Source: an uncultured archaeon (lineage in GTDB: Archaea > Asgardarchaeota > Jordiarchaeia > Jordiarchaeales > Jordiarchaeaceae). From it: 32,000 nucleotides of DNA. The notes under the pieces are model-generated. The model was not told the DNA's origin, searched no databases, and worked only from the letters and a program-made list of their open reading frames with translations. Each line of letters opens with the position of its first letter. Within the stretch, counting starts at the first letter, position 1. Where the stretch lies: contig CAZECW010000187.1 in the NCBI GenBank assembly GCA_964510585.1, forward strand, positions 73,154 through 105,153, in the 5' to 3' direction. Made by a program: the position numbers and the translations under genes. Below, one piece after another: positions 14,194 through 24,051 of this stretch.

Positions 14194-14820
14194 TTGTCCG
14201 TGATACCTATGTTGGATGCTTTTTATCAAAAATTAGGTGAGGACATCAAAACCGCTAACGATTTGGAGAAGAGGGGGGATTTTAGAGCTGCGGCGAAACT
14301 TTGGATTGAGATAGCTGAATACTGCTTAAAATTTGCTAGATCTGAATATGCTTCTGAGGAAATTAGAAAAAACCTTATTGAGAGGTCTGAAGGCTATATT
14401 GAGCATGCAAAAATGCTAAAAATTAGACCAGCACCCTTAAAGGGCTCCATAGAAAAAAGCTCCCAAGCAATAGACTATTTGGAAAAAGCTTTGGATGATA
14501 AGGTTAGAGCTGATAAACAGTGGATGGCCCTTGACCTAAACTCGTACATAATGACTATGTTTAGTGTAATTGAAAAACTCCTCTACCACGTTTATATATC
14601 CAAAACGGGTAATCTTCCAAGCCTCGAAGAAACATTTACTTCTCTTGTTAAATGGGCCTACAGGGAAGGAATCATCAGTGATCACCCCGACAATATTGAA
14701 TTCGTTAGGCTCCTTTACGAAAAATTATCCAAAAAATCGCAAAAAATAACTAGTGAACAGGCTATGGAAGCAAGAGAAATAATGGAGCGAGTGTATAAAG
14801 AGTTATGCGAAAACCTATAA
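14194..14820 (+). CDS. MIT-like domain fused to a degenerate HEPN/DUF4145-like helical domain
   Basis: Residues about 10-76 match the three-helix MIT pattern (A..LEKRGDFRAAAKLW..IAE...IERSEGYIEHAKMLK). The C-terminal half (VIEKLL...LVKWAYREGII...VR) resembles a HEPN fold without RxxxxH. The start is TTG 14194 or ATG 14209. Confidence 0.55.
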   Translation: MSVIPMLDAFYQKLGEDIKTANDLEKRGDFRAAAKLWIEIAEYCLKFARSEYASEEIRKNLIERSEGYIEHAKMLKIRPAPLKGSIEKSSQAIDYLEKALDDKVRADKQWMALDLNSYIMTMFSVIEKLLYHVYISKTGNLPSLEETFTSLVKWAYREGIISDHPDNIEFVRLLYEKLSKKSQKITSEQAMEAREIMERVYKELCENL

Positions 14821-14834
14821 TTTTCGCATGCCTT

Positions 14835-15536
14835 CTACTTCTTTTTCCAAACCTTCTTTATTTCCTCTTCAGAGGCTAGTCTGAAGGTTTGAGTTTCTGC
14901 GTCAATGATGCCTAAATCTATGTCTTCAGGCTGAAGGTTTTCAGAAACTTCTCTCAAGGTGTCTACCGCCAGTTTTAACATTTCACTTATCGACATATCC
15001 TCTTTATACCCTGCTTTCAGAATTTCCAAAGCCTTAGGTTCATTAGCCCCAACCGCTGCAGCTTTGCTTTTGGTCAAGGCTCCCGAAGTGTCTATGAGAA
15101 CTATTTCCGGGCCCCCTCTGCTTATTCCTCCAAAAAGTAAGGCACATCCAAATGGGCGTGTTCCTCCTAACTGTGTAAAGCGCTGCATGAGACGCCCTAG
15201 CCTTTGGGCAAGTGTACTAACATCTATTTTTTCATCGTATGTTACTCTATACGATTGAGCTATGATTCTTGCTCTGTCAAGTAGAAGTCTTGAATCCGAC
15301 ATGTATCCGGCACTTGTGGCGCCTATGTGGTCGTCTATTTTCAAAACTTTTTCATGGGATTCAAGCAGTTTGCTATGTGTTTTCGCCACCCCTGCCAATA
15401 CCACGCCCTTAGATGTTTTTATTCCGACAGCCGGCGCTCCTTTTTTAACTGCTTCGCTGGAATACTCCACTTGAATAATACGCCCTTCAGGAGAGTACAT
15501 GGTGCTACTTTTATCATAATCCATCTCGTCGGACAT
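14835..15536 (-). CDS. psmA: 20S proteasome alpha subunit (divergent paralog)
   Basis: YD....YSPEGRIIQVEY, EKVLKIDDHIG, FTQLGGTRPFGCALL and AVG motifs; GAGGAG SD. Confidence 0.93.
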   Translation of the reverse strand: MSDEMDYDKSSTMYSPEGRIIQVEYSSEAVKKGAPAVGIKTSKGVVLAGVAKTHSKLLESHEKVLKIDDHIGATSAGYMSDSRLLLDRARIIAQSYRVTYDEKIDVSTLAQRLGRLMQRFTQLGGTRPFGCALLFGGISRGGPEIVLIDTSGALTKSKAAAVGANEPKALEILKAGYKEDMSISEMLKLAVDTLREVSENLQPEDIDLGIIDAETQTFRLASEEEIKKVWKKK

Positions 15537-18566: not shown

Positions 18567-19202
18567 TTACTCCTTTTCTTTGGGCTTCTTTGAACTCTCC
18601 AATTCCCTTTTCAGGTCTTCTAGCTCAGATGCCAAGGAAGATTTTTCTGTTATTATGTCCCCCTGCGGTACTTTGGGTTCCTCTATGCCCTCCAATGCAA
18701 TTTCCGCCTCTAGACGGTTTAACTCACTTTCAATATCTCCTGCCTCTTCGACGCCCATTTCGGAAGGAGTTGCCAAAATGTCTGAGCTTCTAGAAATATC
18801 GCGCATAGCTTCCTCTTGCTCTATAATCATTTCGAGTATCTTTTCTGAGTTGACGAGTTTTCGGGCGTTTTCAAGCTCTGCTCCGGCGAGTTCAAATGCT
18901 TCCTTGAGTTCTAAGACATCATAGGCTTCTTCTATGGCGATGATTCTCGTTTCAAGGTTCTCAATAAATGCGGTGTACTTGCCTAGAAAATTCTGGTATC
19001 TTCTGAATTTTCTGAGGGCGAATGTTGCCATGCCTTTGTTGCCCATTTTTAGATACTGTTTAGCCTTGTTTCTTTCCTCGATTGCCTTCCTCTCGTAGTT
19101 TCGTGAACGCAGAGTTAGCCTATTTATACTAGTTCTTAGCTGTGCGATTATCTCGTCCTTGTTTTTGGGCCTTTTTCCAAAGAGTATATCTTTAATACTC
19201 AT
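18567..19202 (-). CDS. ESCRT-III / Snf7-family protein, Vps20/32/60 (ESCRT-IIIB) class
   Basis: Basic N-half and acidic C-half. Motifs AKQYLKMGNKGMATFALRK, NLETRIIAIEEA, DIESELNRLEAE and PKVP (MIM2-like). Confidence 0.85.
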   Translation of the reverse strand: MSIKDILFGKRPKNKDEIIAQLRTSINRLTLRSRNYERKAIEERNKAKQYLKMGNKGMATFALRKFRRYQNFLGKYTAFIENLETRIIAIEEAYDVLELKEAFELAGAELENARKLVNSEKILEMIIEQEEAMRDISRSSDILATPSEMGVEEAGDIESELNRLEAEIALEGIEEPKVPQGDIITEKSSLASELEDLKRELESSKKPKEKE

Positions 19203-19226
19203 ACTTTTCTCCTCTAAGAGTATTCA

Positions 19227-19237
19227 TAGGTTACCTA
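19227..19237. promoter_or_regulatory. 11-bp inverted repeat TAGGT-T-ACCTA next to a TATA-like tract upstream of ESCRT-IIIB
   Basis: Minus strand reads GAAGTTATTATATTTAT-TAGGTAACCTA about 25-50 nt before the ATG. This suggests an internal promoter with an operator; the function is inferred. Confidence 0.3.
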
Positions 19238-19298
19238 ATAAATATAATAACTTCAATTCTTTATTAAACTATACTCTTTAGGCATTATTATACATATT

Positions 19299-20336
19299 CT
19301 ACCCATATATTCTGTTTATTTCTTTTTGTCTGGTTTCAATAAAATCGATGAAATTTTCCAGTGAAGGATCCTCCTCAGCTTCTTCATGAACTAGTTCTGC
19401 TATGCTGAGCAGGGAGGCTGCTACATGTGTGCGTGCGGGCTCGGATTTTATCTCGGGCTTAATGAGAGCTACTATTCTCTTTTCAAAATCATTGAAAGTT
19501 AAAATCCTATCCACAAGGAGAATAAATGATTCGGTTATTCCCCTCTCCAAGTCCTGTTTTTCGTCTAATATCAAGTTGGCTGCCAGATTTTTGAGGGCCG
19601 GTTTCACAATGTCCTCTCTAAACCAATTGAAAAGTTTGCTCTTCTTATCTGATGGAGGAAGAAAGCTTGAAGCAGGGGCACTAATATTTTTAGGCTCTTT
19701 TTTAAGGTTCTCCGCCATTTTATGAATATTTGAACTTTTAATGGTCTCCATTGCCGCTAGTACCAGCGACTTCACCCCCAAAACCACTTCTCCTCTACTA
19801 AACCCCTCTAACATTTTTTCCAGAGCATGTCTGGCTTCCTCGAAGGAAACCTCTTTTGAAATAAAAGACTTGAAAAGTTCCAAGATTTTTGCTCTTGTTT
19901 CCAGAGCTTCACTGTAACCAACGCTATCCAGTGTCAAGATTCTGTAGCCTGGATCCAGAACTTGCTTGTCAAACCATCTTACAACTATGTATTCATCAGT
20001 AATTCTCTCTAAATCTTTTAGAGTAAGTTTGGGATCAGCTTCCTCCAACTCATTGCAAAGCTGCGAAGCGAATGTTTCAAATACTGAAGAGACGTAGTTT
20101 TGGAGAACTTCATCCAATTTGAGACCTTCTAAAATCTTCTCAACCCTCTTTTTGAACGCGGGCTCAGAAATTTTTCCCTCCACCCGCTTTTTAAAATATG
20201 GAAACACTTTCTCCCTGACCATTTGAGATTTCTCAATAAAATTAGCTACAATACTGTCTAGGACGCCGAAAACCACATACTCAAAAAATTCTCTTAAGAT
20301 TTTTAGACCCTCTTCTGAATCAAAAATGTAGGGCAT
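19299..20336 (-). CDS. All-alpha-helical hypothetical protein inside the ESCRT-III operon
   Basis: 345-aa ORF starting 16 bp after the HerA-like gene, with normal composition. No family recognised. It has three repeated helix-hairpin motifs. Confidence 0.75.
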   Translation of the reverse strand: MPYIFDSEEGLKILREFFEYVVFGVLDSIVANFIEKSQMVREKVFPYFKKRVEGKISEPAFKKRVEKILEGLKLDEVLQNYVSSVFETFASQLCNELEEADPKLTLKDLERITDEYIVVRWFDKQVLDPGYRILTLDSVGYSEALETRAKILELFKSFISKEVSFEEARHALEKMLEGFSRGEVVLGVKSLVLAAMETIKSSNIHKMAENLKKEPKNISAPASSFLPPSDKKSKLFNWFREDIVKPALKNLAANLILDEKQDLERGITESFILLVDRILTFNDFEKRIVALIKPEIKSEPARTHVAASLLSIAELVHEEAEEDPSLENFIDFIETRQKEINRIYG

Positions 20337-20352
20337 TTAAATTCACCAAGAA

Positions 20353-23300
20353 TCATTCGATGAGTGACCTGCGCAGCTGCTCGATTTTTTCGAAAGTTTT
20401 CCTCTTTAAGAAAACATATTCATCCTCAGTCATCCTACCCAACTCAAAGTACTCATGTAGGCTCCTCAAATATTTCTGGAATTTCTCTATCTGCCTCAGA
20501 ATCTCCTCCTGCCTTTTCTCCTTATCAGACACCTGTTCTTCCTCCTCTTCCTCTAATGGTTTAACACCCACTGGTTCGCTTACCGGTTTACTAATTTCCG
20601 GTTTAACGCCCTCTTCGGCGCTGATTCTGGGTATTGGTGGTGGGCTGGGTAATTCTGGAAGTTCTTCCTCTGTTATGGTTTCTCTCGTTAAGGGTTTTGG
20701 TCTTGGTGTGCGGGGAGCCGCCTTTAAGCCTTTAACTGTCTCTTTAATTGTTGTTACCATGCCTGCTGCCTCATTTTTAAGCGCCGAAGTGGATGAAACA
20801 CTAATTATTGTGTTTTCCTCGGTTTCAACTATCCCTACGGCCAATCTTGATTTCTCCTTGGAGGCTAAAACTACAGGTACGCTTTTTGTTGTGTCTATCT
20901 CTATTTGCCAACCTTCCTCCTTCAATTTTGTGTAGATTTCACGGATGGCTTCTCTGCTATGCGCCTGTGTCACTATTGGTTCTGCTACTCCCTCCATTTT
21001 GGGGGCAGGGTACAAATGATCATAAAATCTGTATTCCAAGACTCGTTTTAGGTAGTCGGAGGCCAAATCCGTCGGTAAGCTGAGCACGGGCGGGGCTGGT
21101 ATTGATATGTCTGGGGACACTTCCACCATTTCTTCTTCTGTAACTTCTTCCAAAGCTTCTAAAGCCTCAGCCTCTGCTTCGGGTGTGCCTCTTGTTTCCT
21201 CAACAGTTTTCTCAATTTCTGGAGTGGCAACCTGTTTTGAAGCAATGGCTGTGAGTTCTTCAATTATCTTGGGAAGGGCTTCGCGGCCAGAATGCTGACT
21301 CAGCCTGGGTCTTATCTTAACTACAAGGGCACGGTTACTTGTGATAGATTCGTCTGAAACAATGGTCATTCCAACGGGAATGTTTCGTATAAATCCAGAA
21401 TCCTTTATTTCTATGGGGACTTCCGCTGGTGATCTTTTTATGAAGGCAATAATGTCTGGTTCATAGGACAAATAGTGTGTTATCAACACGTCTAGTTGAG
21501 ATAAAATTCTACTATCTGTGGCTGAGGGTTGCTGGGTCACAAGCACTAATCCACAGCCGGGTTTTCTTCCCAGTTTAGCATATTCTACGAGGGGTTCAGA
21601 AGCTGCGGTAACACCCTTAGAGGGAGCGAGTAGATGCGCTTCGTCAATCATCAGCCAAGTCACAGGAATCTCCGCCTCAACCTTTTCATCGATTGTTTCG
21701 CCCAACTGTGCAGCCTCTTCCATTCTTGATATCTGTGCTCTCACCTTGAGTATCTTACGTGCCAGTATACCAATGATTAGGGCACGCAGGCTGTCATCTA
21801 GATGACTTACGTCAATGACAGATACCTGATTGGGAACCGCTAACTGAGTTAAGCTAGTTCCTTTGGCTGAGAAGATTCCCCACTGATTCGCAGATGAAAG
21901 TCTAGCAACCAAAGCTCTTCTAGTGTCACGTCTAAATCCTTTGTCCTCAGAAATGATGTCGGAACAATTCTCGATACATTTAATTAAATCCTCTATGCTG
22001 TAATCGTTTCCTTTACCGGGGACATCTAGTTCTTGGTCATCAATTGTAGCTCTGTAGCCTTTTTTAACCCTATCAATGACCTGTTCTGTTAAGAGACCGA
22101 GCGTGCTAAACCTGTCTATACCAAAGGTGTGGCACCAATCGTCAGCTGTTAACTCTGAAGGCCTCAACGAGAAGGGCTTATCCCTCGTTTGCTCCGGAAC
22201 CTTATCATAGAAACCGATTGGAATAAAGACCTTCACGTTATCGAAGCCCTTGGGAGTGAGACTCCATTTTTCAAGAGCCTCCAATTCCTTTTCGTCCCAA
22301 TTGGGGTACTTCATACTCCAAAAAATTCCCATAGGATCAACAATAATTGTAGCGATTCCCAGTCTTGATTCAGCCAATTCCTCCGCAATGACTCCCATAG
22401 TGTAGGATTTGCCAGAGCCCCTATGACCACTTATAAATATAACGTGAGGCTTTACCCCATCAAGAAGAACCTTACAACCAAGCAGGTTCACATCTTTGCT
22501 GGTTCTCTCTCCCACACAACCAATGTAAAATGTTCCCTTGCAGCCAAGTTTGGCTTGTGTGGATTTTGTTCTCCCCAAAATTACTGATTCGCCCAAACTG
22601 TCTCTCAGAACGGTGAGTGGAGTGTCAACTATTTTAGGCGTGTCAACTATGTTTACCTTCTCAGAGTTAATTATGCTCGCCTCACCAAGAATGTAGGCCA
22701 ACGCCTGCCAATAGTCCTTCAAACTTTTAAGATCAATTTGTTCCGCAATATATCTTCTAAGCTTTGGTTGTTTTGGATACCTATCCTTATCGAAGCTCGA
22801 TAAGCTCCAAAGAAGGAAATCCGCGGTTTCCTGAGCCGATAGACCCCTTAACGGTTTAATAGCCTTTAAGGCTTTTTCCAAAAATTCCATACTATCTGTA
22901 GCCATGAATAGAAGTAGAAAGATTTCCCCCCGTTTATCTATATCAACTGTGCTTATTAGCTCAACCATCTTGTCCAGAAATTTGTCATCTTCATTGTACA
23001 TAAAACCTTCAAAAAGGATCTTTGCAATTTGTAGGTCGAGGGATTTCTGGAACAAAGCGAACCCGAATGCGGTTTGAAGAGACTTTTGAATCTTGTCGTT
23101 TCCCGCTTCTACCAATAGTGAACGAAAGGCATGGACAATTGCTGCTGTGGCTTCACCGTCTATTTCTCCCTTGCTTGAAAGCCAAGCTCCAGAATTTGAT
23201 TGTAGAGAAACCAGTTCTTCGGCGATTTCATTAGATTTCTCCAAGAAGGATTTATCACCCGTAGCCCTATACATGAGGATATGGCAGTTCAAAAGGTTGG

Positions 23301-23391
23301 CCCTATCTCTAATGGTCGCGGGTTCCACAGTCAAAACGTTCTGGATAACATTTGAAAGCAATTCGCATAGGGGTCTTCCCCTAACTAGCAT
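20353..23391 (-). CDS. Multidomain HerA/FtsK-superfamily (DUF87-type) ATPase with N-terminal alpha/alpha-toroid repeats and C-terminal helical hairpin
   Basis: Walker A GHRGSGKS (aa 322-329), IVDPMG, Walker B MIDEAH (aa 580-586), GRKPG Arg-finger segment, TQQPS and RPR..HSG. The N-terminal 240 aa contain YxATGDxxFLEK-type repeats and LQSNSGAW. The tail is Pro/Glu-rich. Confidence 0.85.
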   Translation of the reverse strand: MLVRGRPLCELLSNVIQNVLTVEPATIRDRANLLNCHILMYRATGDKSFLEKSNEIAEELVSLQSNSGAWLSSKGEIDGEATAAIVHAFRSLLVEAGNDKIQKSLQTAFGFALFQKSLDLQIAKILFEGFMYNEDDKFLDKMVELISTVDIDKRGEIFLLLFMATDSMEFLEKALKAIKPLRGLSAQETADFLLWSLSSFDKDRYPKQPKLRRYIAEQIDLKSLKDYWQALAYILGEASIINSEKVNIVDTPKIVDTPLTVLRDSLGESVILGRTKSTQAKLGCKGTFYIGCVGERTSKDVNLLGCKVLLDGVKPHVIFISGHRGSGKSYTMGVIAEELAESRLGIATIIVDPMGIFWSMKYPNWDEKELEALEKWSLTPKGFDNVKVFIPIGFYDKVPEQTRDKPFSLRPSELTADDWCHTFGIDRFSTLGLLTEQVIDRVKKGYRATIDDQELDVPGKGNDYSIEDLIKCIENCSDIISEDKGFRRDTRRALVARLSSANQWGIFSAKGTSLTQLAVPNQVSVIDVSHLDDSLRALIIGILARKILKVRAQISRMEEAAQLGETIDEKVEAEIPVTWLMIDEAHLLAPSKGVTAASEPLVEYAKLGRKPGCGLVLVTQQPSATDSRILSQLDVLITHYLSYEPDIIAFIKRSPAEVPIEIKDSGFIRNIPVGMTIVSDESITSNRALVVKIRPRLSQHSGREALPKIIEELTAIASKQVATPEIEKTVEETRGTPEAEAEALEALEEVTEEEMVEVSPDISIPAPPVLSLPTDLASDYLKRVLEYRFYDHLYPAPKMEGVAEPIVTQAHSREAIREIYTKLKEEGWQIEIDTTKSVPVVLASKEKSRLAVGIVETEENTIISVSSTSALKNEAAGMVTTIKETVKGLKAAPRTPRPKPLTRETITEEELPELPSPPPIPRISAEEGVKPEISKPVSEPVGVKPLEEEEEEQVSDKEKRQEEILRQIEKFQKYLRSLHEYFELGRMTEDEYVFLKRKTFEKIEQLRRSLIE
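22622..22650. repeat. Short direct repeat GTGTCAACTAT x2, period 18 (IVDTP duplicated) at the toroid/ATPase junction
   Basis: Perfect 11-bp copies at 22622-22632 and 22640-22650; the protein reads IVDTPK-IVDTPL. Confidence 0.7.
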
Positions 23392-23439
23392 AGTCGCTTC
23401 CCCTCAAATTTCCCTTATAAGTAGAAAAAGGGAAGAGTT

Positions 23440-24051
23440 TCAGAGTTCTTCTTTCAATTTTTTAATATCTTTTTCCAGTTCCTCAATCTTCCCGCTTGGT
23501 GCAGAGGGAAGCTTTACTCCGGTCTCCACACCGATTTCTTGGTCAATCTCGGAAATAGTTGCTGCAACCTCTTGGGATGTCACTTCGGTAGAAACCGTCA
23601 TCCTCTCCATTCCCGCCTCAGCCACATCCTGAGCCACGTCAAAATCCTGCATAGTTCCATCTATTTCCTCAACCATCTGGGCTATGTCTGGCAAGTTAAC
23701 TGCCCCCTTAAGTCCATTAAGGGCTGATCTAATGCCTGATAGAGTGCTGGCAACATCATAGATGGACTCGCTCTGGCGAAGCCTAACCACCATACCTTGA
23801 ATCCTAAGACGGTAGGCGTCTGTTGCTAGAGCCCATTTTGAATACCTTACGTAGTGTTCGGCGTACATTTTAGCTGCTTCCGTGTTTCCCCTGAGCCGGT
23901 ACTTCTTGGCTTCCTCCCTGTTTTTCCTGGATTCTCTCTCTAGCTGTTTTTTCTGATACTCAAGCTTGCGGGTGAACACTTCAAGTTTATAAATAACATC
24001 TTTAATTTTCGGTCCACCCTTAAGCCAACTCACAAACTTTTTTAGAGGCAT
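23440..24051 (-). CDS. ESCRT-III / Snf7-family protein, Vps2/24/46 (ESCRT-IIIA) class
   Basis: Basic helical hairpin (KKQLERESRKNREEAKKY, AAKMYAEHYVR), NLPDIAQMVEEI, an acidic tail, LPSAPS and a MIM1-like ELEKDIKKLK. Confidence 0.87.
   Translation of the reverse strand: MPLKKFVSWLKGGPKIKDVIYKLEVFTRKLEYQKKQLERESRKNREEAKKYRLRGNTEAAKMYAEHYVRYSKWALATDAYRLRIQGMVVRLRQSESIYDVASTLSGIRSALNGLKGAVNLPDIAQMVEEIDGTMQDFDVAQDVAEAGMERMTVSTEVTSQEVAATISEIDQEIGVETGVKLPSAPSGKIEELEKDIKKLKEEL

Follow-up and report, generated by a model that had tools for sequence, protein, structure and literature searches.

The window analyzed here, a 32,000-nucleotide stretch of the genome of an uncultured archaeon, encodes a large ATPase; the genome has only two Snf7 genes, one on each side of that for the ATPase. 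Does a short proline-rich string in the tail of this protein dock the ATPase on MIT domains, and is it this string that connects the ATPase to the ESCRT machinery? MIT-MIM contacts are the means by which ESCRT-III polymers recruit Vps4 and cofactors, and, if true, a HerA-type ATPase equipped with a MIM2 would represent to our knowledge the first archaeal non-ESCRT-III user of this docking motif.

Architecture of the ATPase and position of the motif

The minus-strand open reading frame translates without stops into a protein of 1012 amino acids that matches Pfam families DUF87 (E = 1.2e-13) and HerA_C (E = 3e-6) and, according to Foldseek, HerA structures (E ~1e-16). It has the ATPase core fold, DUF87 and HerA_C in common with the hexameric HerA and FtsK-HerA translocases (T. 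kodakarensis, D. radiodurans, and S. solfataricus HerA) and, by analogy with HerA, is presumably hexameric as well. Unlike HerA, it has an all-helical domain at the N terminus, an alpha/beta domain toward the C terminus and, in this order of archaea, a tail, and it is syntenic, across much of the Asgard phylum, with ESCRT-III and Vps4, not with repair or defense genes; no NurA, Mre11, or Rad50 neighbor was found in the window. The protein scored far below the cutoffs of the NCBIfam equivalogs for HerA repair helicases (NF040819, 46.4 versus 970 bits; NF040937, 45.5 versus 800 bits) and for the anti-phage HerA of SIR2-HerA and DUF4297-HerA (NF042944, 29.8 versus 850 bits), and the PADLOC HerA models yielded partial matches only. 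By these comparisons, it is a member of the HerA superfamily only.

The string in question, LPELPSPP, is contained in the peptide EEELPELPSPPPIP, which upon translation was found exactly where the first-pass annotation had placed it (Table 1). That annotation had also assigned the peptide to a disordered linker, in agreement with the AF2 model: the motif sits centrally in linker 2, where pLDDT is about 30, stays below 50 throughout, and zero secondary structure is predicted. The linker leads into a C-terminal hairpin of two helices (residues 948 to 983 and 989 to 1011; pLDDT, ~95) that, in our orthologue comparison, was kept in families f1 and f2 only.

Table 1. Features of the ATPase locus, with positions in the window and residues of the encoded protein
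Feature	Nucleotides	Strand	Residues	Basis
MIT-HEPN protein, candidate receptor	14194..14820	+		Pfam MIT, 7.9e-5, 23 bits (cutoff, 30)
ESCRT-IIIB (Vps20/32/60, Snf7 class), downstream of ATPase	18567..19202	-		Pfam Snf7, 8.9e-18
Degenerate MIM2 position of ESCRT-IIIB, EEPKVPQGD	18657..18683	-	174-182	
Helical protein, 345 aa, family unassigned, 16 bp downstream of ATPase	19299..20336	-		
HerA-superfamily ATPase, 1012 aa	20353..23391	-		Pfam, AF2, Foldseek to HerA
N-terminal all-helical domain of ATPase			1-248	AF2, Pfam
ATPase domain			~250-715	AF2, Pfam
P-loop motif, GHRGSGKS			322-329	
Linker 1, disordered			716-761	AF2
Alpha/beta domain, then tail			770-890	AF2
Linker 2 with motif, disordered, 56 residues	20539..20706	-	896-951	AF2
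Peptide containing the motif	20629..20670	-	908-921	Translation, coordinate mapping
Core LPELPSPP, MIM2-like short linear motif	20638..20661	-	911-918	Conservation, CdvB match
C-terminal helical hairpin after linker 2	20359..20550	-	948-1011	AF2
ESCRT-IIIA (Vps2/24/46, CHMP1-3 class), upstream of ATPase	23440..24051	-		Pfam Snf7, 1.4e-17

Two other signals were considered for the ATPase. MIM1 motifs follow the consensus (D/E)xxLxxRLxxL(K/R); the extreme C terminus of the protein, EKIEQLRRSLIE, is invariant in the genus and, as judged by eye, fits this consensus in no register, so that it was ruled out as a MIM1. A sortase- or archaeosortase-type signal was rejected as well, since inspection showed that both LPxTG and a C-terminal transmembrane helix are absent.

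Resemblance to MIM2 and conservation of the motif

The MIM2 core has been defined as phi-P-x-phi-P (PMC8970359), a pattern satisfied by L911-P-E-L-P915, and acidic residues are found upstream of this core, as in the published MIM2 consensus. The Sulfolobus CdvB motif LPELPHPP, quoted in the first-pass annotation as the archaeal precedent, agrees with the literature: the MIM2 of S. acidocaldarius CdvB reads RELLPELPHPP (residues 183 to 193), and a C-terminal CdvB fragment containing it bound the MIT domain of CdvC with a Kd of ~30 uM (PMC5840170). With LPELPHPP, the ATPase motif shares seven of eight positions. Both motifs are archaeal, proline-rich, preceded by acidic residues, and probably extended peptides in flexible tails; beyond each, a linker leads to a small protein-binding module at the C terminus, which is a broken winged helix in the case of CdvB and the helical hairpin in that of the ATPase. 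Unlike the CdvB motif, for which a complex with the CdvC (Vps4) MIT domain is available (PDB 2W2U), the motif described here is a putative ligand and is hosted by a HerA-superfamily ATPase rather than an ESCRT-III subunit, in an Asgard archaeon, the Vps4 MIT domain of which most closely resembles yeast Vps4 in sequence.

The eukaryotic MIM2 of CHMP6/Vps20, for which the consensus phi-P-x-phi-P-x-x-P-phi-P has been given (Kieffer 2008 and Kojima 2016, as quoted in PMC5840170), was compared by consensus only. Positions 1 to 8 fit (L P E L P S P P); at positions 9 and 10, where the consensus has phi-P, the ATPase has P-I, with the next proline one residue later. The ATPase reads S-P-P918 and then P-I-P; the third proline of the consensus is present, and phi3-P4 is out of register by a single residue. 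Orthologues continue after the core with PPP[RK]P, PPSRS, or PPTRP.

Nor is the host a tail of the ESCRT-III class to which MIM2 hosts are expected to belong (Vps20/32/60 or CdvB), being a HerA-like ATPase. In the literature searched, CdvB was the only archaeal protein with an experimentally shown MIM2, and no archaeal non-ESCRT-III protein with a MIM2 was found. MIM2 motifs on non-ESCRT-III proteins have been described for Vfa1 and HCMV pUL71 (PMC11218997); in both yeast Vfa1 (PDB 4NIQ) and pUL71, a MIM2-like motif resides in a disordered region, as in the ATPase. Those motifs bind or regulate Vps4 via its MIT domain and are biochemically validated, whereas that of the ATPase is a sequence match; moreover, they bind as a helix plus an extended segment, whereas no helix is predicted upstream of the ATPase motif.

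The strict form of the motif is rare. Within a crude six-frame proteome of the 3.8-Mb genome (4635 ORFs; 1.19 M amino acids), LPELP and LPxLPxPP were each found once, in both cases in the ATPase motif, and the loose core [LVIM]P.[LVIM]P was found 246 times. When the 73-residue ATPase linker was permuted 100,000 times, the loose core arose in 7% of the shuffles; 0.2% of them had the core with xPP directly after it, and 0.13% had LPELP. Searched against PDB sequences, the tail peptide had zero matches among chains of at least 20 residues, shorter peptides being outside the index.

The loose-core counts, together with the generally proline-rich nature of both linkers in this ATPase family, favor the view that the motif has no specific function and arose by chance in a flexible Pro/Glu/Lys-rich spacer, where common descent and a mild constraint on composition have preserved it within one young genus; the strict-form figures argue against it, as do the correspondence with a structurally characterized archaeal MIM2 and a host locus enclosed by the genome's sole pair of ESCRT-III genes. 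Strings resembling phi-P-x-phi-P are also present in linker 1 of some Helarchaeota-type and f31 paralogues and can therefore arise in the ATPase family independently of the window tail.

Conservation bears on the same question. To 15 database sequences, G120 and two further genomes were added, for a set of 16 distinct Jordarchaeaceae orthologues, 15 of which keep the motif. L911, P912, L914, P915, P917, and P918 are invariant across the 15 database sequences, and the two variable positions, 913 and 916, correspond to x in the MIM2 consensus. Columns conserved at 90% or more among the 16 sequences make up 7 of 8 in the motif versus 7 of the 48 remaining linker columns (Fisher p = 1e-4, a value that overstates the case, given the kinship among the sequences and the choice of the motif after it had been sighted). 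Mean pairwise identity amounts to 0.92 in the motif and to 0.54 and 0.46 in its flanks, and the motif codons vary synonymously between species (CTT/CTA, CCA/CCC/CCG, and TTA/TTG); both observations speak against a chance string.

On the other side, linker 2 contains other conserved short strings (APRKxPKP, EPE, and EE), and the motif is absent from every orthologue compared outside one genus (f1). It was not found in sister family f2, whose ATPases have the same tail and hairpin; there, the string W-x-PPP was discarded as an equivalent, since it aligns with the APRKxPKP element of the genus and not with LPELP. Furthermore, a congener, G120, whose ATPase is 89% identical, reads PPELTSPLP at the motif, with three nonsynonymous changes and no visible compensation, so that at least one lineage can dispense with the motif. 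The conservation of LPxLP in orthologous tails, named in the first-pass annotation as a check, was observed within the genus, against flanks of ~50% identity, and failed beyond it and in G120. Judging from the sequence comparisons and the predicted disorder, LPELPSPP is more than Pro/Glu noise, and we consider a string without specific function unlikely.

Candidate readers of the motif

Three MIT proteins are encoded in the genome: Vps4 (MIT, AAA+, and Vps4_C), which is single and encoded away from the ATPase locus; an MITD1-like MIT-PLD protein; and the MIT-HEPN protein of the window. In yeast Vps4, the I18D substitution interferes with MIM2 binding. Alignment places Ile17 of the archaeal Vps4 at the I18 position (MIM2 groove) and Val63 at the L64 position (MIM1 groove). 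The MIT-PLD protein likewise has an isoleucine aligned with Ile18, and the MIT-HEPN protein has Asn22 there and Ile69 at the MIM1-groove position. The most likely ranking of candidate receptors puts Vps4 first, MIT-PLD second, and MIT-HEPN third. That LPELPSPP is a lineage-specific MIM2-type ligand on the ATPase tether, with the Vps4 MIT domain as the best candidate receptor, is a reading to which we would give an even chance.

The MIT-HEPN protein had been put forward in the first-pass annotation as a possible receptor, alongside a Vps4 encoded elsewhere. As a subcase of the MIM2 reading, the motif could be an MIT ligand with this genus-specific protein, encoded ~6 kb away, as its dedicated receptor instead of Vps4. 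MIT-HEPN does have the same taxonomic range as the motif, occurring in all six genomes of the genus and in none of five of the sister family, and the two share a neighborhood in three of the six genus genomes, namely, those whose compared locus spans both (the window, G117, and G120). However, this co-occurrence comes from a single lineage and amounts to one event; the MIT domain scores below the Pfam cutoff; Asn22 replaces the MIM2-groove isoleucine that both Vps4 and MIT-PLD have, and the retained Ile69 suggests a MIM1-type reader; and G120 keeps an MIT-HEPN protein (95% identical) despite the loss of the motif in its ATPase. We therefore regard Vps4 as the likelier receptor and a dedicated role for MIT-HEPN as very improbable.

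The motif might also be functional with a reader outside the MIT family, such as a UEV domain in an ESCRT-I-like protein, some other polyproline reader, or a member of the ATPase complex (the 345-residue protein, the C-terminal hairpin, or ESCRT-III), given that conservation attests to constraint without naming the reader. The genome does encode a UEV-domain protein (PF05743; 30.4 bits, above the cutoff), and P-S/T-P-P (PSPP or PTPP, of the P[ST]xP late-domain type) is present in 14 of the 16 motif sequences; yet, of the eight positions, the S/T one shows the lowest conservation (S/T/A, 62%; with Ala in P0010), and the invariant pattern L-P-x-L-P-x-P-P is that of MIM2, not P(S/T)AP. As to polyproline readers, no SH3, WW, or profilin domains were found in the genome (the WW and profilin searches were run without a positive control), and a class II SH3 ligand (PxxPxR) was rejected as the primary reading, since PTPPPR fits in most congeners but PSPPPI of the window does not. 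The 345-residue protein, for its part, is present in f26 and f13, with motif-less ATPases, and was not found at the sister family loci. A non-MIT reader thus appears improbable to us.

The ESCRT locus and a possible coupling to Vps4

The ATPase gene is neighbored by ESCRT-III genes, the gene for the 345-residue protein, and that for ZnPH-SB. The best PDB matches were CHMP1A/1B/2A/3 for ESCRT-IIIA and Heimdall ESCRT-IIIB and yeast Snf7 for ESCRT-IIIB. The 345-residue protein had zero matches in Pfam, PADLOC, and NCBIfam; its homologues adjoin the ATPase in f1, f26, and f13. Orthologues of the ATPase adjoin ESCRT-III genes in at least eight Asgard families, in five of which Vps4 is adjacent too, and the ATPases of these families are without the motif. 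While the first-pass annotation had taken the motif as support for the wiring of the ATPase into the ESCRT network, this gets the argument the wrong way round: synteny across at least eight motif-less families is much stronger evidence for that wiring. This ESCRT-syntenic Asgard ATPase was not found in the ESCRT literature searched; in the accessible parts of Makarova et al. 2024 (PMC10936438), searched for HerA, DUF87, FtsK, and P-loop, only the canonical HerA-NurA of TACK genomes is mentioned, in the supplement. In the genus of the window, vps4 is unlinked from the ATPase locus. The idea that this loss of linkage went along with gain of the motif was dropped, as vps4 is also unlinked in f2, where the motif is absent, leaving no correlation.

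The tail of ESCRT-IIIB, where a MIM2 would be expected, carries the degenerate sequence listed in Table 1. Elsewhere, in f15/f16, this position reads LPDIPAEEP, LPEVPQGEP, or IPEVPSTEP, and in sister family f2 it reads EPEVPTEPPIP. With the canonical MIM2 of ESCRT-IIIB lost in the genus, the ATPase tail holds the one complete LPxLPxPP-type MIM2 that the proteome was found to contain.

If LPELPSPP is indeed a MIM2-type ligand, it would be held midway along a disordered tether of ~55 residues between the folded body of the ATPase and the C-terminal hairpin, and would most likely occupy, in the form of an extended polyproline strand, the groove between helices 1 and 3 of an MIT domain, the best candidate being that of the genome's single Vps4. 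In a HerA-like ring, six such tails could provide avid coupling to Vps4 or other MIT proteins, a coupling that would be placed at the ESCRT-III polymer made by the two flanking gene products. The ATPase tail may then take over the recruitment or regulation of Vps4 from ESCRT-IIIB, as in the case of yeast Vfa1.

Going further, we speculate that the Vps4-recruiting MIM2 moved from ESCRT-IIIB, where it decayed, onto a HerA/FtsK-type translocase encoded between the ESCRT-III genes, such that Vps4 or MIT-PLD would be coupled to a pumping ATPase at the scission site. The ATPase would then be an undescribed core part of the ESCRT-III/Vps4 module in Asgard archaea and might act as a translocase of DNA or another polymer coupled to abscission, analogous to bacterial FtsK at the septum. 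This scenario is tentative and, on balance, doubtful. What the motif does offer is a simple candidate for a physical link between Vps4 and a second ATPase, one that involves a single peptide and three MIT domains and comes with a naturally motif-less variant. If confirmed, such a link would mean that eukaryotes' closest relatives among the archaea had already put the MIM/MIT code to new use on accessory machines, and it would point to a role for an FtsK/HerA-type motor in ESCRT membrane remodeling or division.

Finally, the tail of ESCRT-IIIA contains the sequence KLPSAPSG (residues 180 to 187), followed by a C-terminal amphipathic stretch, KIEELEKDIKKLKEEL, which, as read by eye, appears MIM1-like.

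The ATPase and its ESCRT-III neighborhood

The ATPase P0001 is encoded on contig C187 of a 3.78-Mb, 96% complete Asgard genome, and its closest homologues are labelled Jordarchaeaceae, Freyarchaeota or Jordarchaeum in the source records. Pfam detected DUF87, the HerA central domain (1.2e-13), and HerA_C (3e-6), and an AlphaFold2 model (alignment of 72 sequences; mean pLDDT 86, pTM 0.70) matched HerA structures 9x1m, 7wrw and 4d2i in Foldseek at E values of about 1e-16. P0001 scored well under the curated HerA cut-offs (46 versus 970 bits for repair HerA; 30 versus 850 bits for anti-phage HerA). Its C-terminal hairpin is restricted to the family of this genus (f1) and the sister family (f2), with QKYLRSLHEY..LGRMTEDEY..IEQLRR nearly invariant in both.

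Features of the ATPase and candidate MIT-domain proteins (window coordinates unless a contig or locus is named)
Feature	Position	Strand	Basis or description
ATPase P0001	20353-23391	-	ORF translation, 1012 aa
All-helical N-terminal domain of P0001	aa 1-248		AlphaFold2
HerA-like ATPase region of P0001	about aa 250-715		AlphaFold2
First disordered linker of P0001 (linker 1)	aa 716-761		AlphaFold2
Alpha/beta domain of P0001	aa 770-890		AlphaFold2
Second disordered linker of P0001 (linker 2)	aa 896-951		AlphaFold2, pLDDT about 30
C-terminal helical hairpin of P0001	aa 948-1011 (20359-20550)		AlphaFold2, confident, pLDDT about 95
Vps4	contig C140		MIT+AAA+Vps4_C, 388 aa; one in genome
MIT-PLD protein, MITD1-like	L002:1435-2277 (same genome, contig C150)		280 aa; MIT + PLD-like
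MIT-HEPN protein	14194-14820

The sole Snf7-family genes of the genome are the two flanking the ATPase gene, upstream one of the CHMP1-3 (Vps2/24/46) class and downstream one of the ESCRT-IIIB (Snf7) class. ATPase homologues were found in 106 of 400 Asgard genomes searched, and 34 loci were fetched and their ORFs classed by jackhmmer. An ESCRT-III gene lay within a few kilobases at 24 of the 28 long-form loci (families f1, f2, f26, f15, f16, f33, f32 and f13), with the ATPase between ESCRT-IIIA and ESCRT-IIIB in f1, f2, f15, f16, f33 and f32; the adjacency (window 18567-24051, L007-L016, L019-L020 and L040-L051) thus spans at least eight Asgard families. Short paralogues of about 750 aa in f31 and f30 had no ESCRT neighbors at the fetched loci. 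Directly next to the cluster in five families (f26, f15, f16, f33 and f32) is a gene for a protein of 384 to 395 aa, and five of these proteins, one per family, are Vps4 by Pfam (MIT+AAA+Vps4_C). In the order containing the present genome, vps4 is unlinked; in a congener with a closed genome, G117, the distance is 750 kb. A ZnPH-steadiness-box gene is frequently located on the other side of the cluster; in G117, it adjoins an 80-aa ORF (L007:4517-4759) that duplicates the ESCRT-IIIB C-terminal tail and is separated from the full-length gene by about 2 kb.

The ESCRT literature searched, of which coverage was incomplete, yielded no description of this ATPase. While the first-pass annotation took a motif in the ATPase tail as sequence support for ESCRT wiring, the affiliation rests instead on this phylum-wide synteny, which matters more than the motif.

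A MIM2-like motif in the ATPase tail

The peptide in question, EEELPELPSPPPIP, was recovered exactly by ORF translation at aa 908 to 921 (nt 20629-20670), and it does lie in disordered sequence, midway along linker 2; the observation of a MIM2-like motif was confirmed, and its interpretation gained partial support. MIM2 comprises a core phi-P-x-phi-P and an extension x-x-P-phi-P (PMC8970359), where phi is hydrophobic, giving the consensus phi1-P1-x-phi2-P2-x-x-P3-phi3-P4, with RELLPELPHPP as the Sulfolobus acidocaldarius CdvB version (PMC5840170). LPELPSPP in the ATPase is identical to CdvB at seven of eight positions and fits consensus positions 1 to 8, positions 9 and 10 being out of register. 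For a CdvB C-terminal fragment that includes the motif, the Kd for the MIT domain of CdvC is about 30 uM; binding is no more than marginal for CdvB1 and CdvB2, where the distal prolines are missing (PMC5840170). The layout is the same as well: in CdvB, a linker and then a small domain for partner binding come after MIM2 (residues 183 to 193) (PMC12909875), and in the ATPase a linker and the hairpin come after the motif. MIM2 itself is known, also from non-ESCRT-III proteins such as yeast Vfa1 and HCMV pUL71 (PMC11218997); what is new here is that an archaeal ATPase of the HerA type carries a predicted MIM2-type motif.

That the string is functionless and merely compositional seems unlikely to us. 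The loose core [LVIM]P.[LVIM]P turns up often, with 246 occurrences among the 1.19 M residues of a crude six-frame translation and an appearance in 7% of shuffles of the proline-rich linker 2, but the actual string is uncommon: LPELP and LP.LP.PP each occur once genome-wide, both in the P0001 tail, and a core followed by xPP arose in 0.2% of linker shuffles. A search over 5.8 billion protein clusters returned 229 P0001 homologues, and LP[EK]LP[STA]PP was kept in all 14 full-length Jordarchaeaceae-clade sequences (69 to 97% identical), the upstream flanks of which differ (TITEEE, ETKLEE, TPIGAE, KKIEEE, APIDRK, etc.). Mean pairwise identity was 0.92 in the motif, and the linker stretches to either side reached 0.54 and 0.46. 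Across the 16 distinct sequences available once three further genomes of the genus were added, seven of 8 motif columns, versus 7 of the remaining 48 in the disordered linker, were at least 90% conserved (Fisher p = 1e-4, an overstated significance, since related sequences were compared and the choice of motif followed its discovery). Variation fell on the x positions of the consensus (E/K at 913, S/T/A at 916), and codon alignment revealed synonymous interspecies changes within the motif (CTT/CTA, CCA/CCC/CCG and TTA/TTG). On balance, the string behaves like a genuine, lineage-specific MIM2-type short linear motif.

Conservation among orthologues, raised earlier as a check, thus held within the genus, where 15 of 16 distinct sequences retained phi-P-x-phi-P-x-P-P once three further genomes were included, and did not hold among the P0001 orthologues compared outside it, where the motif is absent. 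Sister-family proteins (P0017, P0018, L009, L010, L043 and L044) share the C-terminal extension and hairpin, with a shorter, charged linker; their W-x-PPP was considered as a counterpart of LPELP and rejected, as it aligns with the APRKxPKP element of the genus. Orthologues beyond f1 and f2 terminate shortly past the alpha/beta domain. The exception within the genus, G120 (L008:8425-11490; 89% identical overall), is a natural loss-of-motif variant: three nonsynonymous single-base changes have left EEPPELTSPLPVP at the site, PPELTSPLPVP replacing LPELPSPPPIP, and its Vps4, MIT-HEPN and ESCRT-IIIB are unchanged. The motif is young and occurs in a single genus, of which at least one species can do without it.

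Candidate readers of the motif

Three MIT proteins could serve as receptors (see the table); a TPR protein was discarded because its MIT hit was judged spurious. The MIT-PLD protein has the same domain pair as human MITD1, and its gene adjoins one for a DUF2070 membrane protein. In yeast Vps4, the MIT domain of which is nearest in sequence to that of the genome's Vps4, I18D interferes with MIM2 binding and L64D with MIM1 binding (PMC3987140). Mapped through the yeast alignment and alignment A3, these positions are Ile17 and Val63 in Vps4, Ile and Lys in MIT-PLD, and Asn22 and Ile69 in MIT-HEPN. This crude two-residue comparison favors Vps4 (or MIT-PLD) over MIT-HEPN as the putative MIM2 reader; of the two receptors proposed earlier, Vps4 thus gains and the MIT-HEPN protein loses. 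MIT-HEPN does share the taxonomic range of the motif (present in all 6 genomes of the genus and in none of 5 from the sister family), a co-occurrence that counts as one event because a single lineage is involved. All in all, we regard the prospect that the motif binds an MIT domain as evenly balanced, Vps4 being the likeliest receptor.

A different reader of the proline motif appears improbable. The genome does encode a UEV protein (L039, contig C4:2615-2863; a match of 30.4 bits, exceeding the cut-off, within an open frame of 269 aa), which lies apart from the ESCRT-III locus and is possibly an ESCRT-I-like reader of ubiquitin or P(S/T)xP; against this, among the eight motif positions, the S/T one is conserved least.

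Only one congener, G119, carries a second Vps4-like gene (L038, C84:1373-2455; 51% identical, aligned from aa 28 in a 406-aa frame). A proteasome alpha-subunit gene (window 14835-15536) directly adjoins that for MIT-HEPN; work on how CdvB is degraded in a proteasome-dependent manner in Sulfolobus found that the MIM2-linker region of CdvB destabilizes a reporter fusion (PMC12909875).

MIM2-like strings in ESCRT-IIIB and other ATPases

ESCRT-IIIB tails were compared at the equivalent position (window gene, L009, L010, L013, L014 and L043-L047), and MIM2 showed a graded decay. Canonical forms occur in f15 (LPDIPAEEP, LPEVPQGEP or LPDVPLEEP) and f16 (IPEVPSTEP); f2 (EPEVPTEPPIP, EPEVPSEPPII, EPEVPAEAPVP or EPEVPSETPVP) has lost the first hydrophobic residue; and in the genus, with EEPKVPQ[GT]D (in the window, EEPKVPQGD, 18657-18683, aa 174-182), every distal proline is gone as well. 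By analogy with CdvB1 and CdvB2, the latter string is expected to work poorly as a MIM2. In sequence, the ATPase tail (LPELPSPPPIP) is close to EPEVPTEPPIP of f2 ESCRT-IIIB, and no other full MIM2 of the LPxLPxPP type was found in the proteome; the MIM2 role may possibly have been handed over from ESCRT-IIIB to the ATPase.

Linker 1 of the ATPase family is likewise proline rich. In Helarchaeota-type proteins (so labelled in source records; L045:2167-5676, P0033), IPEVPPSPPPIF, just before the alpha/beta domain, resembles the tail motif; the frame of L045 is interrupted by one in-frame TAA. Three of six f31 short paralogues examined (L022-L025, around aa 540-575) carry ELP[EAD][VI]P[QR]PP[IL]KLSKE[DG]W, a MIM2-like core at a position other than that in P0001, and a fourth reads GLSEVPRPPLKLS (also given as GLSEVPRPPLKLSKEDW). 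MIM2-like proline strings therefore recur in the family, which can be read either as repeated gain of putative docking motifs or as a warning about compositional effects.
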